DNA of 64,000 nt from an uncultured Candidatus Saccharibacteria bacterium (GTDB lineage Bacteria; Patescibacteriota; Doudnabacteria; UBA920). The notes beneath the pieces were generated by a model. It saw nothing but the letters and a program-made list of their open reading frames with translations, made no database searches and was not told the DNA's origin. Location: positions 67,120 through 131,119 of the forward strand of contig CAZTXY010000001.1 of the NCBI GenBank assembly GCA_964617815.1, written 5' to 3'. Shown piece by piece: positions 39,710-54,550 of this stretch (position 1 is its first letter; each line of letters begins with the position of its first letter). A program made the translations under genes and the position numbers.

Positions 39710-39751
39710 TACTAGGCACTAGGAACTAGTTACTAAATGCTACTGACTCAC
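39710..39751. repeat. tandem heptamer array NACTAGN x4-6
   Basis: Reads tactagg cactagg aactagt tactaaa tgctact gactcac. It overlaps the stop codon of the ORF ending at 39740. It is preceded by the palindromic hairpin aaaagccc/gggctttt. Confidence 0.65.
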
Positions 39752-40900
39752 ATCTATATAATATAACCCCTCATCCTGCATATTCTTAAAAAACAACTTA
39801 TCGTTAGTCAAATTCAAAAACATTTCACGTGCATCTACAGCCAATCCTGGGTCAATCTGTTTTTGCGTGGCAGTTTGTGAATCAATTTCGTAAATAATAT
39901 CTTCAGTTAAACCTTTATCTGGCAGGCCTCGCGTTGGTACTGCAGCATAAAGTTTTTGGCTATTGTTAGCCCAAACTACTTTATCAACCGTTGTAAAAAC
40001 CCCCAAATTTTTTGTCTCACCAGAAACTACGTCGCCAACCCAAAGCTGATACCTCTGGCCATCACTATCCCTGCGACCAAAAACAAACTTCTGACTGTCG
40101 GGTGCCCAAAGCACTCCAAAGTTATAACCTTCTTTAACTACAGACTTAAAAATTTGTCCATCCGAAGTTGTTAAGTTAATCGCGTTACGCGAATCTGTAC
40201 TTGCAAGCCGATAAAATAAAATTGTTCGGCCATCAGGAGAAATATTTAATTCATCATCATTCTCCCATATATCTGCTATCGTCGTATAATTAGTACTGTC
40301 GGGGTCAGCAATACTCAACGTAGACTTCCCCTCTTCATCTAACCAAATATAAATTATTCGATCCCCAGTCGGCATCCAATTCACCGAGGTAATTTGACTT
40401 GGCAAATCTGTAAAACCACCCTTTAGACTGTCGTACACGCTCCAGGTTCTACTTGTTCCACTTCCAGACTGAACCATAAAGTTATTACCAGAAAGTGGCC
40501 AAATAACTTTTGAGCCTCCAGACTTTTGAGGAATTACCAACTCTTTTTTATTTGCCAACAACACTACCCCATTGCCAATCTGCAAATCACTTTGAAATAA
40601 TTGCCCTTGCTTATTAAAATAAGTAATTCCGTTACCTTGATAAAACAATACCGGACTGACAACCTGGTCTTCAGTTAAGCGAATTGCCTTAACCCCAGTG
40701 TTAAAACCAGAACCAGAGTTATTAGGGATTTCATCTTGCGGAGGCTGATTTTGAGTGTCGTCTGTATTTGCCTGAGTATCACTAGGTGTATTTGCATTTT
40801 CTTCATCACCAGATTTACTGCGTTGAAAAATCAACACTGCTAGTGTAATAACTATAAGTAAAAATATGCCGCCTAAAATCGCAATCGCTTTTTTATTCAT
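39740..40900 (-). CDS. secreted beta-propeller protein (TolB/PD40-like repeats)
   Basis: N-terminal TM helix or signal peptide, a low-complexity linker, and repeated beta-strand-rich units with recurring W/Y-x-P-D-G motifs. Confidence 0.5.
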   Translation of the reverse strand: MNKKAIAILGGIFLLIVITLAVLIFQRSKSGDEENANTPSDTQANTDDTQNQPPQDEIPNNSGSGFNTGVKAIRLTEDQVVSPVLFYQGNGITYFNKQGQLFQSDLQIGNGVVLLANKKELVIPQKSGGSKVIWPLSGNNFMVQSGSGTSRTWSVYDSLKGGFTDLPSQITSVNWMPTGDRIIYIWLDEEGKSTLSIADPDSTNYTTIADIWENDDELNISPDGRTILFYRLASTDSRNAINLTTSDGQIFKSVVKEGYNFGVLWAPDSQKFVFGRRDSDGQRYQLWVGDVVSGETKNLGVFTTVDKVVWANNSQKLYAAVPTRGLPDKGLTEDIIYEIDSQTATQKQIDPGLAVDAREMFLNLTNDKLFFKNMQDEGLYYIDVSQ

Positions 40901-41116: not shown

Positions 41117-41932
41117 CTACTTTAAAGCCTCTTCAATCGCTTGTTTAAAAGTCGCGTAACTTTGGGCTCCCTCAAAACGTTTACCATTTACAAATACAGT
41201 TGGAGTTGCCTGCACACCATACTGAGTACCACCTTGTGTTTCAGTCTCCACATCTACTTTATGAATTCGGCTGTCAACACAAGTATTAAAGTCAGTAGCG
41301 TTTAAGCCGATGGCTTTGCCAAACTTTTTTAAATTAACTTGAGAAAAAGCTCCTTCATTTTCTCCACCTTGGTTGTCGTACAAATAATTATGAAATTCCC
41401 AAAACTTCCCTTGATCTTGCGCACACTTCGCCGCTTCTGCAGAAAAATGTGATTCTTCTCCCAAGAAAGCATAATCCTGATATGAAAATTTAACTTTACC
41501 AGTATCTACATAGTCAATTTTCAACTGTTTATAAACAGTATCGTATAATTTTTTGCAAAATGGACACTGGAAGTCTGCGTACTCCACAACTGTAACTTTT
41601 GCGTCCTTATTTCCCAAAATAGGCGCAGTGTCAGGAAGTTTCAAGTCAACTTGTTGTGGAACCACTGGTGCCTGCTGACCTGCCGGAACAACGCCAAGTT
41701 TAGTTTGACTTGTAAGAACAGTGTCTAATTTTGTAGAAATTGTTTTAGTGCTATACCAGACCACTCCACCAATAACCCCAGCTCCAATAATAATTGCCAA
41801 GAAGGCAAACAGGCCAATTATCAAAGCCACGCCAAATAACCTACGGTCCTGTGGTGTTAAATTTATTTTTTTTGCCGTAGCAATCTCTTCGGCAACTGGT
41901 TCACTAACTACATCATCATTTTCGTTTTGCAT
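41117..41932 (-). CDS. DsbA-like thiol:disulfide oxidoreductase (membrane-anchored)
   Basis: N-terminal TM helix and a thioredoxin fold with the CPFC active site. Confidence 0.8.
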   Translation of the reverse strand: MQNENDDVVSEPVAEEIATAKKINLTPQDRRLFGVALIIGLFAFLAIIIGAGVIGGVVWYSTKTISTKLDTVLTSQTKLGVVPAGQQAPVVPQQVDLKLPDTAPILGNKDAKVTVVEYADFQCPFCKKLYDTVYKQLKIDYVDTGKVKFSYQDYAFLGEESHFSAEAAKCAQDQGKFWEFHNYLYDNQGGENEGAFSQVNLKKFGKAIGLNATDFNTCVDSRIHKVDVETETQGGTQYGVQATPTVFVNGKRFEGAQSYATFKQAIEEALK

Positions 41933-41941
41933 AAATCTCCT

Positions 41942-42436
41942 TTATCGAATATTAATTGATTGTTCATTTTCAACTGCTTCTTCTGGAATTATATCATATG
42001 GAGGACAAAAACTAAGTCCATAATTTTTTTGATTATCTTGTTTAGAACTACCTGGTAAAGACAAGCCTAATGATACTGACAACTTACAAGCATCGGCTTT
42101 TTCAATATCAAGTCTTTTTAAAAAATCCACTTCAGCAAGTTTTCTATTTTCTAAAATAGGTTTAGCCATAATTAAAATGTAGAAAGTTTGGTTATCATCA
42201 TCAAAAAATGTAATATATTTATCATTTTCTTCTATAAATACATCGCCAGTCTCTTTTGAAAGAACCGAGGGCAATTGATGAAAATCATTTACAGCAACGA
42301 TTGCACCAGAAGATGTTTCTAATTTTAGTTTCGCAGTTTTTTCTGAATCCTTGCTAAGATAGTAAAAGACACTCGCTAAAACTAAGAGCAACAAAATTAT
42401 TATCCCTATTATTATAATTATGTTTTTTTTAGTCAT
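41942..42436 (-). CDS. small membrane-anchored protein in the T4SS-like cluster
   Basis: Start trimmed to MTKKNIIIIIG. One TM helix. Confidence 0.45.
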   Translation of the reverse strand: MTKKNIIIIIGIIILLLLVLASVFYYLSKDSEKTAKLKLETSSGAIVAVNDFHQLPSVLSKETGDVFIEENDKYITFFDDDNQTFYILIMAKPILENRKLAEVDFLKRLDIEKADACKLSVSLGLSLPGSSKQDNQKNYGLSFCPPYDIIPEEAVENEQSINIR

Positions 42437-42438
42437 AT

Positions 42439-44673
42439 TTATTGTCCGCACTTTCCAGAGGAATACTCTAAATAATAACGTGAACCAGTAACAACATAAT
42501 TGCGGGTTTGGCAATAAGTCGCGCTTGCCGCACAATCATTGGTCACATTACTTCCAGGTATACAGGCTGTTTGAGCACCGCTCGTAAAAGGACATTCCCA
42601 AAAGAATTTTCCTGGACAAGAATTACTTGATCTCCAAGGGCCTCCAGGACCTTCACCAGCATTGTAGGCAGCCAAAATATTCCCAATATTATTCCCAATA
42701 TGTGGTTGGTTTGGAATTTGTGATAAATATTTAGTACCACAAAAAATATTTGCTCGCGGGTCACAAGCATCACTAAACGAACCGCATCCTAATCCAGCCC
42801 ATGTTCCTGGTATAATTTGCATTAAACCTTTAGCCCCAGCGGAGCCGTATCCAGTCTGACAATTTCTCCAACCACTTTCTTTTTGAATTACTGCCCTAAT
42901 TAAACTAATATCAACACTATATGCGCGGGAAGCCTCAGCAACAATTCTATCTAAATCGCCATGATTACAAGTAGCAGTTCCCCCTAAATCACATCCGCCA
43001 CTACAAACACCACCGCCAGAACCCTGAACAATTACACACTGTCCTGATCCAGGACCAGGCTCAACACCGCCACCCCCACCTGTCCCGCCACCGCCGAAGA
43101 GTCCTCCGCCGCCAGCACTAAGCGATAACTTTCCACAAATTTCGCTGAGAGCTTGAAATTTTTCTAAACCGGGAACAAAATAAGTAGCGCCGGGAACGTA
43201 AGAAGTTATATTGCCTGCTGTAGAAATCCACTGCGCTCCAGGCAAATTACAAATGACAACAAAAAATAATGCAATCCAAAGAGCTATCCCTATTAAGTAT
43301 ATCGCATTTAGCACTCCTGTGATAAGCATTTTTATCCACCCCATTGGCTGACGAATCCCAATAATAGAACCAACTAAAAATGCATCTAAAACAATTAGCG
43401 GGAGAAAGCCGATGGGGATAAGCACAATAGAAAGTAAACACAAAATGCATATAGCAATCAACCACACCGCCATATCGTCAAGGCCAGACTTAATGACAGC
43501 CTTAGCACTTTCGATAGCAATATTAATAGCAACACCAACACCGGGTGCAACATTGGCGGCAGTAGCCGCTGTTTCAGCAACTGCAGCTGCGGCATCAATA
43601 GCAATATCGGCACCTAACTTAGCAGTCTCTGTAACTTTACCAAGACCACTTGCTTCTTCTATCTTATGTTTGCGATTTGCAATGTCAGCACCTGCATCAA
43701 TTACAGCGCCACCAATGGACAATGCCCCAGAAATATTCGCAGCTTTACTCCCAGCTTCTGCCCCCGCTACACCAGCTTTTATAGCATTACCAGTAATTCC
43801 AACTCCGGCTTTAGCAGCTGTTCCAGCCACTTCTGCAGCCTCAGCTCCACCACGAATAGCTCCTGCAGCCGCACGTTCGGCCCCGGCTCCCCGGCCCACA
43901 GTCCGAGCAGCTCCGCCTAAGCGAGCTGCATCTTCAACACCTTCTTCAGCTAACTCTTCGCCTGCTTTAACAGATGCTTTTCCCGGAGCACCGGGCTGCC
44001 CTTCAACAGTTTCTGATTTTGGAACGTCATCTGGAGACTCAGCCTTTGCTTTTGCTTGATCACGCTCTTTTACGCGCTTATCGTAATCTTTCTTGTGACG
44101 CTCTGCAAATTCAACCGGGCCTTCCTTTTCCTCTTTTTGTTGCCCTTGTTGTGCGTCGTTTCCTGTTTCTGCTTTTTTTTCTGAACCATCTCCTTCTTCA
44201 TCCGGACTTTTTAGCCGATCTTCAGTTAAACTTTGATCATTTTTTTGTGCTTGGTCGTCTAGAGCATTTTCTTTAGAAAAAGATTCATTGTTCGAAGAAG
44301 TTTGTTGTTGATTAATATTTTGATTATCATTGAAAGCTGATGCATTATCTCCGCCTGTATTGCTAGGTGTGGTCTTGCCACGAAAAGGACTAACTGTGCC
44401 AGGTTGTGAAGAGGACCCCCCATTTCCTTTTTGCTTAAAATCAACTTGAGTAACCTTAGTTTTTACTTTTGGATCATTAGAAACAACCGTGACAGGTTTA
44501 TCACTTTCTGCATCTCCACTTTTTTTTGGCACAACGCGCATAGCAGCGCGGGGCTGGCCATCACCCTGACTGCCTCCTTGAATAACAGAAAAGCCTGGCT
44601 GCTCTCCAGCCGATTGTTCTTCGTTATCTACATCGGAGTCGGTTGGCAGTCTTGCCAGGTTATCATTCGCCAT
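42439..44673 (-). CDS. VirB1-like lytic transglycosylase fusion protein
   Basis: Disordered N-terminal region, Ala-rich region, TM helices and a Gly-rich linker. The Cys-rich C-terminal domain carries SLT motifs QKESGW, GLMQI and AYNAG. Confidence 0.7.
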   Translation of the reverse strand: MANDNLARLPTDSDVDNEEQSAGEQPGFSVIQGGSQGDGQPRAAMRVVPKKSGDAESDKPVTVVSNDPKVKTKVTQVDFKQKGNGGSSSQPGTVSPFRGKTTPSNTGGDNASAFNDNQNINQQQTSSNNESFSKENALDDQAQKNDQSLTEDRLKSPDEEGDGSEKKAETGNDAQQGQQKEEKEGPVEFAERHKKDYDKRVKERDQAKAKAESPDDVPKSETVEGQPGAPGKASVKAGEELAEEGVEDAARLGGAARTVGRGAGAERAAAGAIRGGAEAAEVAGTAAKAGVGITGNAIKAGVAGAEAGSKAANISGALSIGGAVIDAGADIANRKHKIEEASGLGKVTETAKLGADIAIDAAAAVAETAATAANVAPGVGVAINIAIESAKAVIKSGLDDMAVWLIAICILCLLSIVLIPIGFLPLIVLDAFLVGSIIGIRQPMGWIKMLITGVLNAIYLIGIALWIALFFVVICNLPGAQWISTAGNITSYVPGATYFVPGLEKFQALSEICGKLSLSAGGGGLFGGGGTGGGGGVEPGPGSGQCVIVQGSGGGVCSGGCDLGGTATCNHGDLDRIVAEASRAYSVDISLIRAVIQKESGWRNCQTGYGSAGAKGLMQIIPGTWAGLGCGSFSDACDPRANIFCGTKYLSQIPNQPHIGNNIGNILAAYNAGEGPGGPWRSSNSCPGKFFWECPFTSGAQTACIPGSNVTNDCAASATYCQTRNYVVTGSRYYLEYSSGKCGQ

Positions 44674-44691: not shown

Positions 44692-46536
44692 TTATCCTGC
44701 AAACTGGTCTTTGCTTTCTTGAATTTCCAGTAACTGTTTCGGGTCTGTTGTAATTATTTGGTCTTCCATGTAGGAAGCGTAAATTTTGATAGCCGCATGC
44801 TTAAGTCCAGCAAAAAATATTCCTTCACCAACATCACTTTCAAGTAATAAATATTTCTCACCTTCAGTTAAAAAGAAAGTTTCAGCCACAATATCCACAG
44901 ACGCAGGACTTTGCTTAAGAAGTAACTGAATTGAAGAGTTTGTGACAATTGGTTTGCCGTACGGACTACTCATAAAATCTGCGACATCCTGAGTGATTGT
45001 TGTAAGACCAAGATAATATTTACGAGCGCGCTTGGCAATTCCATACACAAACCGAGCGGAGTCTTCGTGTTGCATAAGTATCCAAGCTTCATCAAGTACT
45101 AAGATACGGCGCTTCAGCTCGCTTCTAACCACATTCCAAATATGTCCTAAAATTAAATACATTGCCACTGGCCTTAGCTCGTCTTCTAAATCGCGAATTG
45201 AAAAAACTAAAAGCTGATTATTTAAAACAACGTTGCTTGGCTGGTTAAGAAGCCCAGCAAAAGTTCCTTCGGTAAACTTCGAGAGACGCTGAGCTAAACT
45301 TTCCGCACCCACCATATCACCTAAGACAGAAACTAAATCACTCATCACCGGATAGTCAGTGGTCTTAAGTTCCATGCCAGGAGTAATATCTTTGTTCGCA
45401 TACGCCTGCCAAATAGCTTTATCAAGTAGCGCTTCTTCAGTTGGATCTAGTTTACCTAAAACTAAATTCATCAGCCCCAAAAGTCCAATCACCGCACTGC
45501 GCATGGTGTCACTACTGTCTTCACCTTCAAGACCAATAGGTAAGTCAAAAGGATTAATGCGGTAGTCTGAGTTAAGCGAGATGCTTAAATATGTTCCACC
45601 AACCGCGTCGGCTAAATGTTTATATTCATTTTCAGGATCCACAATTAAAACTTCAATGCCAACCATCAAAGAACGCAGGACTTCTAATTTCACCGCATAC
45701 GATTTTCCGGCACCAGACTTAGCAAAAATTACAAAATTAGCATTTTCCATCTTAAACCGGTCAAATAAAATTAAACCGTTGTTGTGCCGGTTAATCCCGT
45801 AAAGTACTCCATCATTTCCAGTTAAATCCGAAGACACAAAAGGAAAAGTTGTCGAAAGGGGGCTGGTATTTAGATTATTTGCTACACCTAAATCGTCTAA
45901 TTGCATTGGCAATGTCGAGTTAAACCCAGGTTGCATTTGCATTAAGGCTCTCTTTGTAACCACGAGCTTCGCACCAAGTGCACTTTCAAGAATAGTTGAC
46001 TCTTTGTCGAGTTCGCGAAGATCTTTAGCATACAAAGTAAAATACAAAGCAAAACGAAAATACTTTTCAGTACCTTGCAATAAATTATCGCGCAATTCCT
46101 CGACGTCGTGATATCCTGTTTCCAGTAATGGATCACGTACCAAACCTTTTTCTCGGTTAATCATCATTTGTGAACCAATCTCTCCAACCTTCCCTTTCAA
46201 CTTTCTCAAGATTGTTCCAGAGTCAATTGGGTAAATAAACATTGAGACATCTAATGCCCCTTGAGAGTTGATAACAAACGACAACCAGTTCGAAGATAAA
46301 TAACGTGGGTAGGTTAAGACAAAAAAACTACGCGCAAATTTTCCATTCAACTCAAAATGGTCAGCCTCAAACTTCAAGCTTGCAGGCGCTATAAGGTCTT
46401 TAAGCGAAGTTAAACCTTGCTTATAGCTATCTTCAAGAGTACTAAGCTCTTTTCGAGTCGCCTCTTTACTCTTGCGCTCCTCAAGCTCATGCTTTTTCGC
46501 TTCTAATTGTTCTTCTGAAAGGTTAAACCAAGACAT
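44692..46536 (-). CDS. VirB4/TraC-like conjugal transfer ATPase, C-terminal ATPase part
   Basis: Walker A FAKSGAGKS and the Walker B region VLDEAW. Family-level resemblance to VirB4/TrsE. Confidence 0.8.
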   Translation of the reverse strand: MSWFNLSEEQLEAKKHELEERKSKEATRKELSTLEDSYKQGLTSLKDLIAPASLKFEADHFELNGKFARSFFVLTYPRYLSSNWLSFVINSQGALDVSMFIYPIDSGTILRKLKGKVGEIGSQMMINREKGLVRDPLLETGYHDVEELRDNLLQGTEKYFRFALYFTLYAKDLRELDKESTILESALGAKLVVTKRALMQMQPGFNSTLPMQLDDLGVANNLNTSPLSTTFPFVSSDLTGNDGVLYGINRHNNGLILFDRFKMENANFVIFAKSGAGKSYAVKLEVLRSLMVGIEVLIVDPENEYKHLADAVGGTYLSISLNSDYRINPFDLPIGLEGEDSSDTMRSAVIGLLGLMNLVLGKLDPTEEALLDKAIWQAYANKDITPGMELKTTDYPVMSDLVSVLGDMVGAESLAQRLSKFTEGTFAGLLNQPSNVVLNNQLLVFSIRDLEDELRPVAMYLILGHIWNVVRSELKRRILVLDEAWILMQHEDSARFVYGIAKRARKYYLGLTTITQDVADFMSSPYGKPIVTNSSIQLLLKQSPASVDIVAETFFLTEGEKYLLLESDVGEGIFFAGLKHAAIKIYASYMEDQIITTDPKQLLEIQESKDQFAG

Positions 46537-46540
46537 ATAG

Positions 46541-47245
46541 TTAACTCACTTCATTATTATTTCCAACAATCGCTATTTCTCCTAATTTTCCAGCATCGAT
46601 TAGCGGTCCCGACTCAAAATTATACGAATTATAAAATAGCTCAATCAGCTGTTCGGTATTTAGTCGCACTGCACGCAAACTCATCCCACCTAAGTTATTG
46701 GCAACACTACCAGCCCGTTCATCAAGTAAAGTTCTAACTTTTTCAAAATTTTCCAGCCTTTGGGCAATTTCCCGTGTTTTAGTACTTTTAAATAATCTTG
46801 CAAAAAATCCCGCTTTAGGAGGAAAAATATTTTGGGGCAATGAAATAATAATGTAAAAATTTTTATTCATTATATTTGCGCTCTCAACTAAATGGCTAAT
46901 AAACTCAATGTACTCACCAGTTTGAATGCGTAGCAATTCATTAGGCTGTTTTTCCATTAAGTGTTTTAAACTTTCGGTGTAGTCACCAATATCCATTCTT
47001 CGACTCTGCATTAAAACTTGGATTGGAAAATCCAACGAATTAATAAACCGCTGATATGCAACAATTAAAGCATCTTGTTCATCCTGACTCTTAAGATCAA
47101 AGTTTGTGCTTGAAACAGCCACCACGGCACGCAGGGTTCCGTCTTCCATAACAACACAGTCGTTGCGAATTTCATAAAATCGCAAAAATGATTGCGTTGG
47201 TTTTAAAATTGGTTTATTTGATTTTTTGTTTGAAAAAAGTCCCAT
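46541..47245 (-). CDS. VirB4-like N-terminal domain encoded as a separate ORF
   Basis: TAA-CTAT-ATG junction with the downstream ATPase ORF. The sequence pattern resembles the VirB4 N-domain of Gram-positive T4SS. Confidence 0.5.
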   Translation of the reverse strand: MGLFSNKKSNKPILKPTQSFLRFYEIRNDCVVMEDGTLRAVVAVSSTNFDLKSQDEQDALIVAYQRFINSLDFPIQVLMQSRRMDIGDYTESLKHLMEKQPNELLRIQTGEYIEFISHLVESANIMNKNFYIIISLPQNIFPPKAGFFARLFKSTKTREIAQRLENFEKVRTLLDERAGSVANNLGGMSLRAVRLNTEQLIELFYNSYNFESGPLIDAGKLGEIAIVGNNNEVS

Positions 47246-47253
47246 AAAATAAA

Positions 47254-47700
47254 TTAAAGTGGTTTATCTGCCAAAGCTGTCTCTGCAGCACCTTGCTGTG
47301 AAAGAGTGTAATTAAGTTTATGAAGCCTGACCGTTGCACTTTCCTGCTCTATTTTTGGAAGAGTAGTATCTGCTTGTTTTGTTTCTTGATCCATTAAAAT
47401 TTGGTGAGAAGAATCTAGCCCTTGTTTTGAAAAAATTAGAACTCTTGGGCTGACCATATACTGCAAATACGGGTAGAAGGTTGAATATAAAGGCCGACCG
47501 TTAATTTTTGCGAAAGTCAAAATTAACGCTGGCATTCCAAAAATTAAAAAGGCAAAGATGCCAACAATAATACTTTTTGTTCCTGTATAAAGCAAAAATG
47601 TCAGTGCGGCACCTGCACCTAAAATACCAAACTGCTTTAAAGTCAGTCCAGCTATGATTTTGTCTTCTACATCTGTAAATTGTGGGACGCTATATTGCAT
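47254..47700 (-). CDS. VirB3/PrgI-like small membrane protein
   Basis: 148 aa with two adjacent TM helices, sitting directly upstream of virB4. Confidence 0.4.
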   Translation of the reverse strand: MQYSVPQFTDVEDKIIAGLTLKQFGILGAGAALTFLLYTGTKSIIVGIFAFLIFGMPALILTFAKINGRPLYSTFYPYLQYMVSPRVLIFSKQGLDSSHQILMDQETKQADTTLPKIEQESATVRLHKLNYTLSQQGAAETALADKPL

Positions 47701-47744
47701 TCGTCTCTTTTTAGTATATCACACTATTTGCTTAATTGATCGCT

Positions 47745-48707
47745 CTAATTTACTTGAGTAGCACGCAAGACATCAATAACTGCTTCAAAATCTGTTTTAG
47801 ACATCCCGCCTAAATTTGCTGTAGTATTTGGGTCTGAATGCATCAATGCTTGCTGGCCTGCTTTCATATACTCTTCATACAAAGGACTTTTTTCTAACAA
47901 AAATAAAACTGAAAAATATCCAAACTTTTTAACTAAGGACCTCATGGCTTCAAGTAAATCATCTTTCCCAAGTGACATCACTGTCGACCGATTTAAGTGC
48001 TCTACATCTTCTAAGGATTTAAGCTCGAGCGGAACTTCACTTGAAAAATTAGTTTTCGCCACTTCCATTTTCTGGGGCAACTCACTTAAAGAGCTATGCT
48101 TAAGCAAAGCGCTATAGTCAGTCTGCTTAGTGACAACTTTTTGCAAATGAACAGGGGTTATTGGCTTCAACCCTGCTTTCACCAAAGGTAGGCCTGCGGT
48201 AGGGTTAGGACGAGCATTTATTGATGCCAAAGGCGCTGTCGCAATACTAGGTCTTGCAGGAGAGTTAAGTTGATGATCAAAATCTTCTTGACCACTTTCC
48301 AATTCTTTTTCTGTCATGACCTGTGCCAAACTTTTTGCAAAAGCCCCTGTAGTTTGACCCTTGTCTTCGTGCCTAAATGTTTTCACCTGAGAACTTAAAG
48401 TTTGCTGAGGAGCACCCAAATTATTTGGTAAATTAGTTATATGATGAAGGCGGTTTGCAGTTAGAGGAGCAGAAGCCACTGGCTTAAGAGATGCTGAAAT
48501 TGGCCCAGGTTTTGGGCGCTGTTGTGTTTCTGGTAATTTTGCAATGACCACGCTAGAAGACGGCGCAGATAAAATAGTGACTAAGTCACTTAGCTGTTTG
48601 TCATTCATCACCGGCAAACTCTCAAGCCATGTTGTTTTTTCATCGGGCTGGAGTAATTTTGAAAAGGCAATAAGATTTTTAATTTTTTCTAGCGGTATAG
48701 AAGTCAT
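47745..48707 (-). CDS. hypothetical protein in the T4SS-like cluster (P/S/T-rich)
   Basis: 320 aa with no recognised domain. Confidence 0.4.
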   Translation of the reverse strand: MTSIPLEKIKNLIAFSKLLQPDEKTTWLESLPVMNDKQLSDLVTILSAPSSSVVIAKLPETQQRPKPGPISASLKPVASAPLTANRLHHITNLPNNLGAPQQTLSSQVKTFRHEDKGQTTGAFAKSLAQVMTEKELESGQEDFDHQLNSPARPSIATAPLASINARPNPTAGLPLVKAGLKPITPVHLQKVVTKQTDYSALLKHSSLSELPQKMEVAKTNFSSEVPLELKSLEDVEHLNRSTVMSLGKDDLLEAMRSLVKKFGYFSVLFLLEKSPLYEEYMKAGQQALMHSDPNTTANLGGMSKTDFEAVIDVLRATQVN

Positions 48708-48715
48708 TGTTTGCC

Positions 48716-50095
48716 TTATAAATCTTGAGACTCTTTACGTTTTTTTAAATCCTGTAACCGTTGCTCAATTTGCGAAGCTTCTAGCGCTCGCTTTTCTTGG
48801 CTTTGTTTTTTCATCTTTTCTATATCTACACTCCCTGCTCCACCACCAAGACCAACACCAGAAGATGGCACAACATTTCCAGCTAAGTCAATTGATTGCC
48901 TAGTAGTTCGATTATTAAGCAGGTCTTGCAAATTTACAGTTGGACCAAAAGGATTAGCCCGAGAAACTCCACTCATTGGCTCTGACTCTGTCTCTGGACT
49001 TATTTCTGCAACTGAAGCTTCAGCTTTTTGTTCATCTTGTTTTACTTCCGAAGCTGTATCTAAGTTTATAGAAGACAGTGGCTGAATATTTTGTAATAAC
49101 TCTGGGGGAAGACGAACTGGTTTTGGCGGTGTGGGAACTTGTTCCAAAATTGAGGCAGCTTTAGCATTTATTTTGGCTTTTGGTGGTTCTGGCGGAGTTG
49201 GTAATTCCACTGGACTAAACTCGGAGTCTGTCAAAGAAAAATCTTTGGCTTTTGAAGCGAGAAGCACATCTCTTGTGTCTTCGTACTTTTCAATTTCATC
49301 AGGATCAACTTCCGGCTTAAGTAGCCACTTATAAAATTTTATCAACTCAGTTAATAACTTTTTATCCTGTGGTGATAAACTCGCAACATTACTAGACTTT
49401 GTCATGTAGGCCGCTTCATCAAATACAGATGTAGCAGAGAGTGGTTTAGCAATAAAATCACCGTAATCTAAAATCCAATTTTTAATTACTGGTTGATACT
49501 GCTTACCGGAAATAACTAACGCTTGCGTTCCTAATTGTTCTTCATTTTGTTTAAGACTAGAGACAAGCGGTAGACCCCAATTTTCTTTATTCTCACCATA
49601 CTGATAATAATAAACCCGCTTAAATTCCATGCGCACATCGCCTGCATGCATTAAGTAGAGTAGGTTGTACCGAATTAAACCAGAGAGCTCCTCCAGTGGA
49701 AATTCTTTAAACAGCTTGACTTCAAACTCAAGCATGGCCTGCAGTAAAGAAAGATCTGCGCGAATTTTGCCCTTGTTTACAAGCGTCTTTACATCAACAA
49801 CCATTGGTACCAAATACTTCCCAAAGTCATAATTTGGATCATCAAGTCCTGACACTAACAACTCCGTTAAAAATTCTGGTTCATTGCCAATTGCCAATTC
49901 CGGTAACTCTACGGAGTCTTTCATAACTTGGAAGATATAGCGGTGCATTCGAGGAAGATCTACCTTATGAAGCCACATATACAAAAACTTTTTTGTATAT
50001 GTTCCCATAGAAAGAACATGCGAAACTAACCACTGTTTTTCAGTGTCACTAAAGCCTGATGCTGCTATAGCAGTTGTTAGTTCTTTATCATCCAT
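48716..50095 (-). CDS. hypothetical protein in the T4SS-like cluster
   Basis: 459 aa with a structured N-terminal half and a disordered Pro-rich C-terminus. Confidence 0.4.
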   Translation of the reverse strand: MDDKELTTAIAASGFSDTEKQWLVSHVLSMGTYTKKFLYMWLHKVDLPRMHRYIFQVMKDSVELPELAIGNEPEFLTELLVSGLDDPNYDFGKYLVPMVVDVKTLVNKGKIRADLSLLQAMLEFEVKLFKEFPLEELSGLIRYNLLYLMHAGDVRMEFKRVYYYQYGENKENWGLPLVSSLKQNEEQLGTQALVISGKQYQPVIKNWILDYGDFIAKPLSATSVFDEAAYMTKSSNVASLSPQDKKLLTELIKFYKWLLKPEVDPDEIEKYEDTRDVLLASKAKDFSLTDSEFSPVELPTPPEPPKAKINAKAASILEQVPTPPKPVRLPPELLQNIQPLSSINLDTASEVKQDEQKAEASVAEISPETESEPMSGVSRANPFGPTVNLQDLLNNRTTRQSIDLAGNVVPSSGVGLGGGAGSVDIEKMKKQSQEKRALEASQIEQRLQDLKKRKESQDL

Positions 50096-50098
50096 AGA

Positions 50099-53000
50099 CT
50101 ATAATCCTGCGATTACTTGATTAACCATATTATCTATCGTAGTTGTATTTATTGGGGCGCCAGAAATTGTGCGAGTCGCAAATTTCCCACCAAGCAAAGT
50201 TTCCAAATCACTTTTTAAGAGAGCTCTCTTTGCTGGATCCTTCAAATCCTCACCGGCGTGAGTCGAACGAACTGTATTAACACTTTTAATAATATCTTCT
50301 GTTAAATCTTCCTCTTCGGCTTTACTAATTGTTGGAATGCCTGCATCCCTAGTGTTTAACCGATCTGCAAAACTATTATGCACAAATGTCTTTGCAGAAT
50401 CGAGCATTGCATCTCGAGCTTTAGTATCTGCAACCCCACTAAATGCATCCGCTAACTCTGTATCATTAAAATGACTAATTTTACTCAAAACTCTATTAGC
50501 TTTATTCTGAACTTTGCCACGAACCTTACCCTCTAACCCATCATAGGCTATTCCAAATTGTTCATATTTATCATCCTTAGCTAACACACTTGCCACTGGA
50601 TCTTTAAGTTTTTCTGGAATTTTTGAATAACTATTACCACTGAAGTTTACCTTTGCATAACTCCCTGCAAAAGCTCTAAAATTCCTTTCAGCCTCATCCT
50701 TAACATCAGCTTCGGTAAAGTTTTTCCCTTTCTTTCTATACTCCTTAACCAATTTCTTTTGCATGCGATTGATAAATTCATTTCTCTTAGTTTCATCGCG
50801 TAATGCATCTCCAATTGCTTCCTGCTGATCTGCTCTAATATGAGTATTTTCCATTTCAGCTTTTCGTGCATCAGCAGTCAAGGCTAATTCAACAAGTCTG
50901 TCATTTGCCTCTACATCACCACTAGCCGTAGTAGCAACAAATGTAGATGCTGGGGTGTCTTCAGCAAGGGCCTTTGGAGACATTTTAGCTACAGCTTTAG
51001 CCTGATTTTTACTCATAAGAAATGCCGCTTCACCATTACGCCACTGTTCACGTTCTTCGGGAGTTTTAAGTTTTTTATACTCTTCAGCAAACTTTTCTTT
51101 GCGAATAGACTCAAGTTTTGCCTCAGAAACATTTGGGTCTCTTAGTCTCTCTGCATCTGCCTCTGCGTCAGCCGCTGTTTTTGCAGAATCAAACAAAGAT
51201 GCTCCACCAGCCGGTCCAACATTATCGCCAATATGTGCCAACCTTTTACTCTCATCATAACGAAATGCTCCTCTGATCCATTGCTCACCACTCTTACCAC
51301 CAATTTCATCAAGTTTTTTACCCAACACACCTGTTGAATAAGAATCCAACTGACCGTTATTAACCATGCCTTGCATAAACCCTCTCATGCCCTCGTCCGT
51401 AGCTGCAAATTTGAGTGCTTGAGCTAATTCTTTCATTCCACCTTGCTCAGCAATTACTTTAATAGTAGCCTGAAGTTTTGTGCGATCTTCCTGGTTTAAA
51501 TTCTTTTTCTCAGAAAGTTCTTTAACCCTTGCAATGTTTCGAGCAACATCCTCCTTTGTCGCCTCTTCTTGTTGTTTATCTACAGACTGTTGCATAAGCT
51601 CAGCGAGTTTGTATGTTTCATCACCTCGAGTAAATGGAAGTCGTGAAGCAACGTCTGTAGCCGCAGCACGAATTTTTTCTTGATCTTGTTTTTTTGCATT
51701 TGTCCAATTATCAAGAACTGCTTTTCCCGATGAAATTGGGTTAAACAAAGCTGAAATAGTGCGTCGTTTTCGTGAATCTGGGTCTACTGCTAAATACTCA
51801 GCGGTCTTTTTGCCTTTGTAGGTATTTGCTATTTCTCCACCCTTCTTAGCTACCCAAAGTGGACTTTTAAATCCTTTTTCTGCAAAGTCACCAATGGCTT
51901 TAGACCCAATCAAAGACAACGAGGAAGTGGCCTTCATTCCAATAATCAAAAATATCATCACAAGCAAGTTTGAGCCAATGGTAAATACAAAATCTGAAAT
52001 ATTTTGATACTGCGTCGCAAACCCAGGATTGCTTCCACCACTAACTAAATCTGCCATGATTGATTTGCTTAAACTAATATCAACTTCTGTACTCCCATTC
52101 GATGAAATAAACGCGGCGATGTTTAAAAAGAAAGCTAAAATAACCGCATAAAAAGCATACTTAAGAAACTTATCCCACCACATTTTTTGAAAACTTTTTG
52201 TGTTTGGCAAAACTCCTGCCACATAAGCCAAAGGTGACAGCATGAGTAAAATCCACAGCGCAATAATCCTAATAAACAACATTGCTGCTACGGCAACAAA
52301 CAACACGCCTGTTCCCAAAGCCATCGCCAAACTAACAAATGGTAAAAATAAATTTCCAACACCTTGTCCTGCTGTACCTGGTGTTATAATATTTTTATAA
52401 GACTTACTTAAATTATTTAATGACGGACCAGCAATAAGCACATAGGCCAGTCGGCGCACTGGCGTATATTCAAATGTCCCATCAGTTTTTGGGGGTGGGA
52501 GGAGCTGAGTCTGAACTGTATCGGCAAGACCCAAAATAGACTGCCCAATAACCAAACTAAAGTTAACTAGGACAGCTGCAATTATTAAGTTAACCAATAA
52601 CTGCTTATACTGGTATCCTTGCACACGAAAAATTGTGGCTAGTCCAATAACTAACAAAACAAGGATGAAGAAAATGTTACTAAGATTTCGCAGGACAATC
52701 CAGCCGGGCAAAATCACCGCAACAAAAGAGTCTTTGTAAGTTTGAATTCCAATTAATGCTTCTATCAGTGGAACGACTAAACTTAGTACCACAAAGGCTA
52801 CAAGACTAGATACAACCGCAATAACTGTACTAAAAATAGCTGTTAAAGTATCCAGTAAAGTATTAGCAATCACGCTCCCAAGACTTGGTCCTCCACTGGC
52901 AGGCGGAACAACTGGTGGAGTACCAACATCTTCTAAGGGTGTCGTTACAGGGTGATCATTACTTGTCTGGTCAATCTTTATTGTTACATTTTCACCAATT

Positions 53001-54118
53001 TTATGAGCCGTGCCTCCTTGCGGTGTAACAGTAGCGGAAAGAACCATTTCAGCTGGCGGAGAAGTGCTTCCAAGGGCTTGTTGAGTTGTAACTGTATTCC
53101 CAGCACGATATGCATAGGCCGGCTTACCGTCAACTTGAATGAGAACTGCTTTATTGACTGAGTAAGAGATTGTAATGCCAGGAGTAAAGGTAAGCGCAAA
53201 AACAACATTATCTAAATTTTGACATTCAGTTGATGCATCACCTGGTAGTATCACTTCTGCCCTAATTATAAATTGTTCAGTAAGCCCTACCACAGCTTTA
53301 TTTGTTTGAACCTGAGAACTTGCAATATTTGCAAAACAGTCTGTGCCCGTAGCACCACCCTTAGGCAAAATAAAAACATTATACGCTTTTGTGACTGTTT
53401 GATTTGTAGAATCTTTTAACGTTACTGTGAAATCTACTTTCTTATTTACATCACCTTCTGGTGGAATTCCACCAACTTTACCAGTGCTATCAATTCCAAG
53501 CCAAAAAGGTAAGGCGGGTTCTAAAGTCCAAGTATAAGGTGTCGTTCCTCCAGCTCCTGATAGCTGAGTACTATATTCCTTACCTACCTCGGCCTCAGGC
53601 AAGCGCTCTGCATCAGGTTGAATTGCTAAACCTTCTGCTACTGAAACAATAACTGTTTCTGGCAAGACTCTCGTAAAACCAAACTCTTTTACTGTCACTT
53701 TTAAGGTATAAGCGCCTATGGCATTAATTGACATATTTGCCTCACCACTAAATCCTTGCGGACTTGTATTCCTGTATACAGAGCCAGAAGTCGCCTCTGC
53801 AATGTTTGTAGGCTGATTAGTACCTTGTTCTAAAAATTTATAACTAAAACTAATATTAGATGCGGCATTTGCTGTACAGCCTGGTGGTGATACGTTTGGT
53901 TCCACAAATACGTCGGCCTTAAAAGATTGGCCTTTACTTACTTTTACTGGCCCCTTAGAACCATTAATAAAAATATTGCTTGTTTTAAATGGAGGCGTTG
54001 TAACTGAACACAATGCTAAAGCCAATTTGGGTGGAACAAGAAAAGTGCCTAATCCAATAAGCAAAAAGGCTAGAAAGGAAAGGGCTGATTTTGTTTTAAA
54101 TTTTTGTTTCAAAAGCAC
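50099..54118 (-). CDS. giant VirB6-like polytopic membrane protein (1339 aa)
   Basis: Signal peptide, N-terminal Ig-like beta-rich domains, a central block of 6 or more TM helices, and a long charged coiled-coil C-terminus. Confidence 0.55.
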   Translation of the reverse strand: MLLKQKFKTKSALSFLAFLLIGLGTFLVPPKLALALCSVTTPPFKTSNIFINGSKGPVKVSKGQSFKADVFVEPNVSPPGCTANAASNISFSYKFLEQGTNQPTNIAEATSGSVYRNTSPQGFSGEANMSINAIGAYTLKVTVKEFGFTRVLPETVIVSVAEGLAIQPDAERLPEAEVGKEYSTQLSGAGGTTPYTWTLEPALPFWLGIDSTGKVGGIPPEGDVNKKVDFTVTLKDSTNQTVTKAYNVFILPKGGATGTDCFANIASSQVQTNKAVVGLTEQFIIRAEVILPGDASTECQNLDNVVFALTFTPGITISYSVNKAVLIQVDGKPAYAYRAGNTVTTQQALGSTSPPAEMVLSATVTPQGGTAHKIGENVTIKIDQTSNDHPVTTPLEDVGTPPVVPPASGGPSLGSVIANTLLDTLTAIFSTVIAVVSSLVAFVVLSLVVPLIEALIGIQTYKDSFVAVILPGWIVLRNLSNIFFILVLLVIGLATIFRVQGYQYKQLLVNLIIAAVLVNFSLVIGQSILGLADTVQTQLLPPPKTDGTFEYTPVRRLAYVLIAGPSLNNLSKSYKNIITPGTAGQGVGNLFLPFVSLAMALGTGVLFVAVAAMLFIRIIALWILLMLSPLAYVAGVLPNTKSFQKMWWDKFLKYAFYAVILAFFLNIAAFISSNGSTEVDISLSKSIMADLVSGGSNPGFATQYQNISDFVFTIGSNLLVMIFLIIGMKATSSLSLIGSKAIGDFAEKGFKSPLWVAKKGGEIANTYKGKKTAEYLAVDPDSRKRRTISALFNPISSGKAVLDNWTNAKKQDQEKIRAAATDVASRLPFTRGDETYKLAELMQQSVDKQQEEATKEDVARNIARVKELSEKKNLNQEDRTKLQATIKVIAEQGGMKELAQALKFAATDEGMRGFMQGMVNNGQLDSYSTGVLGKKLDEIGGKSGEQWIRGAFRYDESKRLAHIGDNVGPAGGASLFDSAKTAADAEADAERLRDPNVSEAKLESIRKEKFAEEYKKLKTPEEREQWRNGEAAFLMSKNQAKAVAKMSPKALAEDTPASTFVATTASGDVEANDRLVELALTADARKAEMENTHIRADQQEAIGDALRDETKRNEFINRMQKKLVKEYRKKGKNFTEADVKDEAERNFRAFAGSYAKVNFSGNSYSKIPEKLKDPVASVLAKDDKYEQFGIAYDGLEGKVRGKVQNKANRVLSKISHFNDTELADAFSGVADTKARDAMLDSAKTFVHNSFADRLNTRDAGIPTISKAEEEDLTEDIIKSVNTVRSTHAGEDLKDPAKRALLKSDLETLLGGKFATRTISGAPINTTTIDNMVNQVIAGL

Positions 54119-54259
54119 AGAATTTATAGCTAAAAAGTCTTAAAATTAGACCAAAAGTTAGCTTTATTATATCACAACAACTCCATTTTTTCCAAATTTT
54201 AACAAAAAAGCACCGAGAAGTCTCTCGCGTGCCAAAAAACTCAAATATTGCAAAGCACT

Positions 54260-54550
54260 TTAGCCTCGTGGGCGAATAAATTGCGTTTTAATTTTTGGAA
54301 CAATCTCAGTTTGTTGAGACTCCGGAATTTTGTTTTCAATAACTGGTTTGGAAATAGGTTTAGTAACTGCAGGTTGAATTGTCGTAGTATTTGACGAAGC
54401 CGACGCCCCCACACCCTGCAATTTTGCTTTACCACCTGGTAAGCTAAAACCATTTTGCACCATTACAAACAAAACCAAAATAGCCGCACTCCCCCCAATT
54501 GCTAAAAGATGGGTAAGCCCAAAACCAAATTTTGTGTTACTACTCATCAT
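54260..54550 (-). CDS. small membrane protein (candidate pilin-like subunit)
   Basis: 96 aa with one hydrophobic helix (KFGFGLTHLLAIGGSAAILVLFVMV). It is the first gene of the cluster on the minus strand. Confidence 0.35.
   Translation of the reverse strand: MMSSNTKFGFGLTHLLAIGGSAAILVLFVMVQNGFSLPGGKAKLQGVGASASSNTTTIQPAVTKPISKPVIENKIPESQQTEIVPKIKTQFIRPRG

Follow-up and report, generated by a model that had tools for sequence, protein, structure and literature searches.

The T4SS locus

The window, by which we mean the whole 64-kb stretch of DNA analysed here, encodes a VirB4-like ATPase of a type IV secretion system (T4SS) at 44692..46536 (Pfam TraG P-loop, AAA_10 and CagE_TrbE_VirB), taken here as the anchor gene, which is 52-100% identical to its counterparts in metagenome loci. 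All features described below lie, like virB4, on the (-) strand. The remainder of the T4SS operon occupies 46541..54550 (Pfam PrgI and TrbL; NCBIfam TrsD and CD3337/EF1877), and includes a TrsD-like gene (46541-47245, NCBIfam TrsD), a PrgI/VirB3-like gene (47254-47700, Pfam PrgI), a gene for a VirB6-like protein of 1339 aa (50099-54118), a small TM protein gene (54260-54550) and two genes without an assigned identity; KsgA and UvrD bound the operon. Since the VirB4, PrgI, TrsD-like and VirB6-like genes match the published Patescibacteria repertoire (PMC12102498), the locus is, judged by its gene content, the known chromosomal, monoderm-type (MPF_FATA-like) T4SS of Patescibacteria, and the host genome, that of an ultrasmall bacterium, appears Doudnabacteria/ABY1-like.

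LT744 starts 18 nt after virB4, in the position where related loci encode their hydrolases. In S. epibionticum, the hydrolase genes downstream of virB4 are reported to be essential (PMC12102498). With its gene inside the T4SS cluster and beside core genes, LT744 is a candidate member of the T4SS-associated hydrolases of the functional VirB1/PrgK/TraG class. A TM-anchored protein follows virB4 in all 21 loci scanned (the window and 20 relatives), and every one of these consists of a long N-terminus, a block of TM segments and a domain at the C-terminus. In 13 of the 21 this last domain can be recognised as a wall hydrolase (SLT, SLT_3, M23, SLT+M23, SLT+C39_2 or phage lysozyme), and the other eight have no Pfam match. 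Monoderm T4SS hydrolases are also described as large and multi-domain (PMC12102498). The build of LT744, which an earlier note on this DNA had called unusual for a VirB1-like enzyme, is therefore ordinary for its lineage. LT744 is followed by p164, dsbA and a gene for a TM-anchored PD40/TolB-like beta-propeller (39740..40900, 386 aa, no Cys; Pfam PD40, NCBIfam TolB-like) whose place behind the hydrolase cassette is kept in almost every related virB4 locus.

The lytic transglycosylase LT744

LT744 (42439..44673, 744 aa) is predicted to be a membrane-anchored lytic transglycosylase. Its family-1 SLT domain, in a Cys-rich framework that we call type A, spans residues 570-744 (42442..42966) and matches Pfam SLT (PF01464) over residues 578-684 with 62.9 bits against a cutoff of 21.3 (E 2.6e-17). 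The catalytic motifs named in the earlier note are all present, with ES at 599, GLMQ at 616 and AYNAG at 669, and these columns are invariant in an alignment of 61 SLT proteins. The codon of the predicted catalytic Glu599 lies at 42877..42879, residues 599/600 corresponding to the invariant E94/S95 of alignment A3. In the AF2 model the SLT core has a lysozyme-like alpha-helical fold (pLDDT 85-97), with the Cys-rich insert at low confidence (pLDDT <50), and the best Foldseek matches are Slt70, Slt, MltC, MltF and MltE (probability 1.0). Profile, motifs and modelled fold all point to a family-1 lytic transglycosylase domain.

Residues 1-230 (43984..44673) are polar, charged and of low complexity, lack a signal peptide, match no Pfam or NCBIfam model and are probably cytoplasmic. 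At about 230 aa this part is shorter than the roughly 300 aa of disorder first claimed. The Ala-rich region is also there, as an Ala/Gly-rich stretch of about 170 aa (residues 231-395, 43489..43983; 51 Ala and 28 Gly in 176 residues), and leads into a hydrophobic block at residues 401-475 (43249..43473). The Kyte-Doolittle peaks of this block read as three TM helices at about 401-420, 422-441 and 448-475. Lys and Arg are confined to the part preceding TM1 and the 441-448 loop, with none in the TM1-TM2 turn or after TM3, and hydropathy together with the positive-inside rule favours an N-in, three-TM, C-out topology. In other proteins (P0001, P0124-127) a signal peptide and a pilin-like anchor of two TM segments precede the same type of SLT domain. 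This placement and the distribution of Lys and Arg suggest that the SLT domain of LT744 is most likely extracytoplasmic, as the earlier note had supposed.

LT744 has 18 Cys, three of them in membrane segments (409, 412 and 475) and 15 between residues 513 and 742, so that a previous count of about 16 was fair. The patterns CSGGCD (at 557), CQTGYG (605), CGSFSDAC (630), CPGKFFWEC (686) and CIPGSNVTNDC (704) were all found. Cys make up 6.3% of residues 505-744, against a mean of 0.73% in the proteins of the window, and generic SLT homologues have a median of one Cys compared with the 15 in the LT744 ectodomain; the enrichment is far above chance expectation. Other exported proteins of the window have 0-3 Cys, and the VirB6-like ectodomain has four. 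Among type-A members at about 38-40% identity, about 8-9 Cys positions are kept in six out of six (C557, C569, C630, C645, C686, C694, C704 and the C-terminal Cys), and a further six Cys occur in the LT744 sequence only. The conserved positions presumably form disulfides.

p164 and the exchangeable cassette

p164 (41942..42436, 164 aa) starts 2 nt past the LT744 stop, and its product has two invariant Cys (C117 and C144) behind a TM anchor at the N-terminus. It was overlooked in the earlier note, which had placed the DsbA just downstream of LT744; the DsbA is downstream, with p164 intervening. The p164 family is large (1464 representative clusters of two-cysteine proteins) and has no Pfam model, and its members also occur in tandem or within big proteins. 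A PDB profile search with p164 gave no match, and it has no resemblance to known lysozyme or lytic transglycosylase inhibitors by fold or profile. Homologues of p164 come after type-A SLT genes in six other loci (L001, L145, L146, L147, L155 and L156), suggesting that p164 is the cognate partner of the type-A, and also the type-D, hydrolase domain.

By blastn the DNA of the window and of the related locus L083 is collinear and 85-92% identical, except at 41925-43062. The replaced segment (41925..43062) holds LT744 from about residue 537, in a Gly-rich linker, to its end and the whole of p164; at the same spot L083 carries another SLT domain, likewise Cys-rich, and a small gene that is unrelated. 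Residues 1-515 of LT744 are 87% identical to the L083 orthologue, and the sequences are unalignable beyond. The flanking proteins are 87-100% identical (VirB4 99.8%, DsbA 91.5%) and the T4SS core 99-100%. The SLT domain and p164 are thus a unit that is exchanged as a block.

Hydrolase type and partner type are matched. Types A and D are followed by the p164 family, type B by the family of L083_195 and L149_213, and type C by that of L004_183. The three partner families are unrelated and each stays with its own hydrolase types, and all partners are membrane-anchored ectodomains. The pairing is the same in both genomic contexts, post-virB4 and pilin-anchored, and the same domain/partner pairs occur in another Patescibacteria clade, fused to T4SS-pilin-like anchors. 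When close relatives are compared, the N-terminal module is constant while the C-terminal domain and a small downstream gene vary together; such a layout is characteristic of polymorphic toxin loci. LT744 itself has no Pfam pre-toxin or trafficking domain, and a PT-TG domain was found only in the positional orthologue L087.

DsbA and cassette type

The DsbA (41117..41932, 271 aa) is of the BdbD type and predicted to be membrane-anchored, and its gene is separated from p164 by a 9-nt spacer, suggesting that the two are co-expressed. It matches Pfam Thioredoxin_4 (125.8 bits, E 2.4e-36) and DSBA (57.3 bits, E 2.4e-15), as expected of a thioredoxin fold with an inserted helical domain. A CPFC active site at residues 123-126 and a single hydrophobic segment at about residues 32-58, preceded by four Lys or Arg, agree with the TM-anchored thioredoxin-fold protein that had been described. 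Of solved structures, B. subtilis BdbD is nearest (3eu3, E 9.6e-24, over residues 103-271), and its ATPT sequence lines up with the cis-Pro of the window DsbA (T243-P244). C170 and C218 make up a further conserved Cys pair, and the Cys spacing is kept in nine orthologues. In B. subtilis, BdbD together with BdbC is the oxidase on which the competence proteins ComGC and ComEC, both disulfide-bonded, depend. No multi-TM protein with the Cys pattern of a re-oxidising partner (DsbB/BdbC or VKOR) was found in the 64-kb window.

A DsbA directly follows the Cys-rich cassette types A, B and D in 10 of 11 loci (A 7/7, B 2/2, D 1/2) and the Cys-poor type C in one of nine. With the window and the loci ascertained by DsbA left out, the counts are 8/9 and 0/8 (Fisher p = 4e-4), a test that overstates independence because the loci are related. 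By GltX/M23 identity each type-C locus is nearest to a type-A or type-B locus, giving at least three independent sister-locus contrasts. The DsbA-Cys-rich hydrolase tie has exceptions. The type-D hydrolase of L092 and its p164-like partner have no DsbA, other Cys-rich post-virB4 hydrolases (L085, L114, L129 and L132) have none adjacent, and in L004 a DsbA adjoins a Cys-poor type-C cassette. In type-C loci that lack DsbA, the neighbouring pilin-fused hydrolases carry 8-16 Cys, so those genomes must oxidise them otherwise. The L004 genome bin has a second DsbA paralogue on another contig (L005), and the T4SS-linked copy is therefore not necessarily the sole oxidase.

Among about 50 related virB4 loci the window, L083 and L004 are the only ones with a DsbA, and among 80 DsbA-anchored loci only L004 has T4SS genes nearby. 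In a survey of 32 of the closest DsbA-anchored loci (from the range L003-L040, in which six further loci gave no DsbA call), the neighbours within two genes were heterogeneous and included ZIP transporters, thioredoxin reductase, thioredoxin and Fur. DsbA homologues in relatives are thus mostly unlinked to T4SS genes, which tells in part against the earlier proposal that the oxidoreductase is a dedicated folding catalyst for the secretion-system hydrolase. The proposed pairing does hold in relatives when read by cassette type. A functional tie between the DsbA and Cys-rich hydrolases is supported by the gene neighbourhoods; it is to the hydrolase cassette type and not to the T4SS, and 'dedicated' is unproven, as the DsbA beside a Cys-poor cassette in L004 illustrates.

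Comparison with known systems

LT744 resembles PrgK of pCF10, TraG of pIP501, the CwlT/TcpG class and the Patescibacteria post-virB4 hydrolases (PMC12102498) in lying beside virB4 in an MPF_FATA-like locus. Like other monoderm T4SS hydrolases, whose hydrolase domains vary between systems, it is large, multi-part and membrane-anchored with an SLT-type domain. It differs in having a single SLT domain without a CHAP, M23 or LytM partner domain, in a very long N-terminus (about 400 aa) that would be cytoplasmic under the favoured topology, in its 15-Cys ectodomain, and in the joint exchange of its domain and a cognate small gene between genomes sharing 85-92% DNA identity.

Thioredoxin-fold proteins are known from diderm T4SSs, such as TrbB/TraF of the F plasmid, DsbA of R27, Legionella DsbA2 and four thioredoxin-like genes in ICEclc, where the lytic transglycosylase (VirB1) gene has one of them on either side (PMC10018362). 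These are likewise encoded in or beside the T4SS operon and are thought to fold exported T4SS parts. Here, however, the DsbA is BdbD-like, has a Gram-positive-type N-terminal membrane anchor, lies in a monoderm-type system and follows the hydrolase cassette type instead of the T4SS itself. Neither DsbA nor thioredoxin is mentioned in the published account of Patescibacteria T4SSs (PMC12102498). BdbD shares with the window DsbA a membrane-associated DsbA fold, a CxxC site and a cis-Pro loop, and it too serves an envelope-spanning machine; the differences are the CPFC active site, the second Cys pair and the lack of a BdbC, DsbB or VKOR partner within the window.

The Xanthomonas X-Tfe/X-Tfi pairs, in which T4SS effectors carry peptidoglycan-hydrolase domains (PMC10933484), also join a variable enzyme at the C-terminus to an N-terminal module that stays constant, with a small gene downstream that co-varies and encodes an envelope-located partner. 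In contrast to these effectors, LT744 is encoded in the operon of the machine itself and predicted to be an integral membrane protein; it carries neither an XVIPCD-type nor another secretion signal, orphan modules were not found, and a toxic role for LT744 and an immunity role for p164 are putative. New here are the exchangeable SLT/p164 cassette, its recurrence on pilin-like anchors, and the association of DsbA with Cys-rich cassette types.

Proposed role of the locus

The reading that we consider probable, taken jointly, is that LT744 is a T4SS wall hydrolase with an exchangeable SLT/p164 unit whose disulfides are made by the adjacent BdbD-type DsbA. The long N-terminal region would lie in the cytoplasm beside VirB4, and three TM helices and the Gly-rich linker would place the family-1 SLT domain outside the membrane, where Glu599 may cut glycan strands in the wall of the cell itself, of its host, or of both. 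About 8-9 conserved Cys would hold this outer domain together. p164 would be a membrane-anchored ectodomain; it has one invariant Cys pair and is exchanged en bloc with the SLT domain. At the same site close relatives carry other hydrolase/partner types, and a separate hydrolase cluster mounts the same pairs on T4SS-pilin-like anchors. The DsbA, last gene of the virB4-LT-p164-dsbA run, would make the disulfides of these exported Cys-rich proteins.

There is perhaps one chance in a few that the DsbA is instead a general extracytoplasmic oxidase, placed here by descent and with no special tie to the hydrolase or the T4SS. It is a conserved flank between the window and L083, outside the swapped block, it is kept with the Cys-poor cassette of L004 and absent from most related T4SS loci, its neighbours elsewhere are heterogeneous, and the VirB6-like ectodomain also offers Cys. 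The DsbA nevertheless tracks the Cys-rich types in two unrelated genomic contexts and across the sister-locus contrasts, the L004 bin has its second paralogue, and the short p164-dsbA spacer suggests co-expression. A different alternative is that p164 is a structural T4SS subunit, an analogue of VirB8 or PrgL that adjoins the hydrolase gene through operon order, as in prgK-prgL. Its size and N-terminal TM anchor are VirB8-like, and in Patescibacteria only a few VirB8 homologues are recognised so far (PMC12102498), but this is very improbable: hydrolase clusters with no virB4 nearby also have p164 homologues behind the same SLT type, p164 was swapped with the hydrolase domain while the T4SS core stayed 99-100% identical, and the PDB profile search returned nothing for it.

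It is also possible, though doubtful, that the SLT domain and p164 are an effector/immunity-like (enzyme/inhibitor) pair directed against the wall of a host or competitor, with p164 shielding the producer's peptidoglycan and the DsbA only aiding folding. The polymorphic toxin signature, the fidelity of the three partner families, the membrane-anchored ectodomains of all partners and the PT-TG pre-toxin domain of L087 (E 1.5e-8) are consistent with this, as are the cognate immunity proteins that Xanthomonas has for T4SS-delivered peptidoglycan hydrolases (PMC10933484) and a T4SS that is essential for epibiotic growth in a role that is not known (PMC11665869). Toxicity or inhibition is, however, a conjecture from the locus layout. 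LT744 is membrane-anchored and not obviously deliverable, orphan cassettes were not found, and the size of the p164 family, with its tandem and embedded copies, fits a general regulatory or binding domain equally. p164 is also unlike known inhibitors of these enzymes.

As a tentative extension of the proposed role, Patescibacteria may mount swappable hydrolase and partner cassettes on the post-VirB4 protein and on T4SS-pilin-like anchors, as polymorphic effector/immunity-like modules at the epibiont-host interface, with Cys-rich versions travelling with their own BdbD-type DsbA for oxidative folding. If this is true, the hydrolase and its partner would determine host range or self-protection as parts of an essential secretion system.

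The transglycosylase gene and its neighbors

LT744, a 744-aa membrane-anchored lytic transglycosylase, is encoded at 42439-44673 (-), after virB4. It is followed by p164 (41942-42436, -), encoding a 164-aa membrane-anchored protein, and then by dsbA (41117-41932, -), whose product matches Pfam Thioredoxin_4 (E 2.4e-36) and also DSBA. The spacers are 18 nt between virB4 and LT744, 2 nt between LT744 and p164, 9 nt between p164 and dsbA, and 216 nt between dsbA and the next gene, that of a PD40 protein; no terminator was predicted in this last gap. The earlier note had put the DsbA just downstream of LT744, and it is indeed downstream, but not directly adjoining, as p164 lies between the two genes. 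It is a TM-anchored thioredoxin-fold protein with a CPFC site, as described, the site being at 123-126 and the one hydrophobic segment at 32-58.

The SLT domain spans LT744 residues 578-684 (Pfam, E 2.6e-17), with ES at 599, GLMQ at 616 and AYNAG at 669. These motifs and all five of the Cys patterns first noticed are present in LT744, and E599/S600, GLMQ and AYNAG form invariant columns in a 61-sequence SLT alignment. LT744 has 18 Cys, three in its hydrophobic block and 15 between residues 513 and 742. Cys makes up 6.3% of the last 240 residues versus a mean of 0.73% over all window proteins, and the median is one Cys in 152 generic SLT homologs. The Cys-rich insert has pLDDT <50 in the predicted structure.

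By hydropathy, three helices are the best reading of the hydrophobic block (401-475). K/R residues are confined to the stretch ahead of the first helix and to the 441-448 loop, and are lacking from the first turn and from the 25 residues past the last helix, a distribution that favors N-in, C-out. Independent support comes from five homologs (P0001, P0124-127) in which the same SLT type is preceded by a signal peptide and a two-TM T4SS-pilin-like anchor. By analogy with VirB2-type pilins, the C-terminus of a protein with such an anchor should lie outside. From these sequence features, we infer with good support that the SLT domain lies outside the membrane.

The T4SS locus and its lineage

The genes upstream, on the same strand, encode a VirB4-like ATPase, TrsD-like and PrgI/VirB3-like proteins, two unknown proteins, a VirB6-like 1339-aa membrane protein and a small TM protein. 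KsgA/UvrD border this T4SS run at one end, and a PD40 propeller, RadA and RecG at the other. The remaining genes in the window are housekeeping (PBP2, MreCD, RseP, Clp), and an Rfam scan of the window gave two tRNAs only. The locus is a chromosomal, monoderm-type T4SS of the kind previously described for Patescibacteria. At species level, a Candidatus Doudnabacteria MAG (locus L004) is the nearest relative, with VirB4 78% and RadA 65% identical. Hydrolases encoded after virB4 in Patescibacteria are already published, and in S. epibionticum those directly downstream of virB4 are essential (PMC12102498). Epibiotic growth of the sole genetically tractable Patescibacteria requires the T4SS, whose role has been called completely unknown (PMC11665869).

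A virB4-anchored metagenome scan gave 62 loci with VirB4 identity of 52-100%; all compared loci are metagenomic and related to one another, and the window genome was covered over 64 kb. The conserved order is virB4, a variable 200-1300-aa membrane protein, sometimes a small TM protein, the PD40 propeller and RadA. In the window and 20 relatives, Pfam recognizes a wall-hydrolase domain in 13/21 post-virB4 proteins (SLT, SLT_3, M23, SLT+M23, SLT+C39_2 or phage lysozyme) and has no match in the other eight. Pfam was used for the SLT calls, a custom SLT HMM having missed divergent domains such as that of locus L083. The build of LT744 had been thought unusual, but in relatives with VirB4 identity ≥74% the hydrolase is likewise preceded by a long N-terminus that lacks a signal peptide and by a TM block, so the architecture is a lineage trait.

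The PD40/TolB-like beta-propeller (39740-40900, -) is TM-anchored with 0 Cys, and nearly every related virB4 locus has it after the hydrolase cassette and before RadA. It may be an unrecognized T4SS-associated component, and section 13 of the Patescibacteria T4SS paper (PMC12102498) does not list it. A second wall hydrolase, a TM-anchored LysM + CHAP protein (58120-59376, +; 418 aa, 4 Cys), is encoded on the opposite strand, just beyond the T4SS operon.

A swapped hydrolase cassette

The window and L083 align collinearly, sharing 85-92% of their DNA sequence, except at window positions 41925-43062, where there is no similarity. The swapped interval comprises LT744 from about residue 537, in a Gly-rich linker, to its end, and the whole of p164. 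LT744 residues 1-515 are 87% identical to their L083 counterpart, and identities are 99.8% for VirB4, 100% for the TrsD-like protein, 99% for PrgI and 91.5% for DsbA. At this interval L083 has a different SLT domain (PF01464, E 5e-7) with 17 Cys after the last TM, and its partner gene encodes an unrelated protein of 195 aa that has 5 Cys, a signal peptide and, at its C-terminus, a TM anchor. L004 has a third, Cys-poor SLT type and another small protein with 0 Cys. Between the window and L083, DNA identity returns at the start of dsbA, which rules out movement of DsbA with the cassette in this pair.

Besides the cassette, the T4SS locus has one more hypervariable part, the VirB6-like protein (50099-54118, -; L083 1143-4847). 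This protein shares only 50% identity with its L083 ortholog over residues 399-1261, and its N-terminal ectodomain (~43-398, 4 Cys) is unalignable, with VirB4, TrsD and PrgI at 99-100%. The G+C content of the swapped cassette (41942-43062) is 0.367 versus 0.461 in the conserved N-terminal part of the LT744 gene, and is similar to that of dsbA (0.393) and virB4 (0.398); the Ala/Gly-rich composition of the N-terminal part probably explains its high value.

Hydrolase types and their partners

The only close relatives of the window SLT domain (38-40% identity) are ~375-aa fusions to a T4SS-pilin-like N-domain, which sit in a conserved cluster of another Patescibacteria clade in the order GltX, M23 peptidase, pilin-SLT, small protein, sometimes DsbA, and pilin-M15_4 or similar. 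Type A hydrolases (the window and P0001-like proteins) have a partner of the p164 family, as do the SLT_3-like type D (L006, L085, L092). Type B (L083, P0176) is paired with the L083_195/L149_213 family, and type C (L004, P0130, P0177) with the L004_183 family. This pairing is the same in virB4 loci and in pilin-hydrolase clusters, and the three partner families are unrelated to one another; homology of the p164 family with type-C partners was ruled out by hhalign. No partner type gave anything significant in Pfam or NCBIfam, nor did type-C partners match in a profile search of PDB sequences.

At least 80 proteins (P0128-P0205) fuse a T4SS-pilin-like N-domain, with a signal peptide, a conserved Cys pair and two TM helices, to SLT, M23, M15_4, VanY-type M15 or CHAP wall-hydrolase domains. 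The fusions mostly carry 10-17 Cys (clusters L001, L145-L152, L155 and L156, of one Patescibacteria clade).

An exhaustive HMMER search found 1464 representative clusters of the p164 family at E ≤ 1e-3 and 206 at E ≤ 1e-10. Two Cys, in the motifs DACKL and YGLSFCP, are the sole invariant columns. Among the best 148 matches, 124 have exactly two Cys and 137 an N-terminal TM segment. Some members of the family (P0239-P0386) are arranged in tandem (P0242, P0244), and large proteins may end in such a domain (P0240, 1084 aa); the size of the family and these occurrences indicate a widespread, uncharacterized extracytoplasmic domain. p164 itself has no Pfam, NCBIfam, PDB or fold match and no tblastn match in PLSDB plasmids, and a profile search of PDB sequences gave nothing for the family. 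The strict pairing argues that p164 may interact directly with the hydrolase domain.

DsbA and the cassette type

Among solved structures, B. subtilis BdbD is the closest to DsbA (E 9.6e-24). The window DsbA carries a cis-Pro (T243-P244) as well as a second pair of Cys, which keeps a constant spacing across nine orthologs. DsbA directly follows the partner gene in 7/7 type A, 2/2 type B and 1/2 type D loci (the contig of a third ends), and in 1/9 type C loci. Without the window and the two loci to which DsbA itself had led, the counts are 8/9 versus 0/8 for type C (Fisher p = 4e-4, the loci being related to one another). That type-C loci form one clade, making the association a single event, was ruled out by GltX/M23 identities. 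The M23 peptidases of L148_C and L001_A share 87% identity; the nearest loci to L151_C are L146_A and L149_B, and those to L152_C are L145_A and L001_A. Since type-C loci are thus scattered among A/B relatives, there are at least three independent contrasts.

Further cases of DsbA beside pilin-fused Cys-rich proteins are found in L006 and L070. In L070 (5207-7388, a Candidatus Uhrbacteria MAG), a DsbA homolog is followed at once by a 485-aa pilin-domain protein with 26 Cys, another independent pairing of DsbA with a Cys-rich exported protein. One MAG (Cand. Doudnabacteria La1_metabat2.020; L004 and L005) has two DsbA paralogs, 48% and 45% identical to that of the window; one is T4SS-linked, and the contig of the other has T4SS-pilin-like genes ~7 kb away.

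Proposed function and alternatives

The best reading of these sequences is that LT744 acts as the wall hydrolase of the T4SS, that its ectodomain and p164 would be stabilized by disulfides, and that these would be supplied by the probably co-transcribed DsbA, possibly with some specificity for them. The chief alternative is a DsbA that serves as general oxidase and stays at this site through descent. Several loci speak against a strict link: L004 retains DsbA beside a type-C cassette, L092 (type D with a p164-like partner) is without it, and other Cys-rich hydrolases also lack it; in DsbA-less loci the adjoining pilin-fused hydrolases still have 8-16 Cys. Among 80 DsbA-anchored loci, only L004 has T4SS genes near DsbA, the neighbors being mostly metal and redox genes. 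The proposal that DsbA may serve as a dedicated folding catalyst is partly supported: DsbA tracks the Cys-rich cassette types, but its T4SS linkage does not extend across its homologs. No DsbB/VKOR was found within the 64-kb window.

The DsbA role would also fit a more novel reading, in which hydrolase and partner would be an effector/immunity-like pair. The locus has a polymorphic-toxin signature, and the ortholog in L087 (12118-14124, +), a post-virB4 hydrolase, has a Pre-toxin TG domain (PT-TG, PF14449; residues 41-83, E 1.5e-8), otherwise known from polymorphic toxin proteins. That p164 is instead a VirB8-like structural subunit is unlikely, as its family occurs without virB4 nearby and p164 is swapped while the T4SS core is constant.

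Thioredoxin-fold proteins encoded by T4SS are established in the diderm systems of F, R27, ICEclc and Legionella (PMC10018362, PMC12624023), whereas the window has a BdbD-type DsbA in a monoderm-type locus. No description was found, in the papers searched, of a link between BdbD-type DsbA and Cys-rich hydrolase cassettes in this monoderm-type T4SS, of cassette exchange together with cognate partners, or of the p164 family, and the Patescibacteria T4SS paper (PMC12102498) does not mention DsbA, thioredoxin or immunity.

The DsbA link marks disulfide bonding as a likely requirement for these hydrolases, which matters for their expression. The p164 family is a large two-Cys domain without a Pfam model, for which a role as hydrolase partner is now a concrete hypothesis. 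The wall hydrolase beside virB4 is a fast-swapping module with a cognate partner. It and the VirB6-like ectodomain are the two most divergent parts of a machine whose core is otherwise 99-100% conserved, pointing to a surface that may decide host specificity or self-protection.
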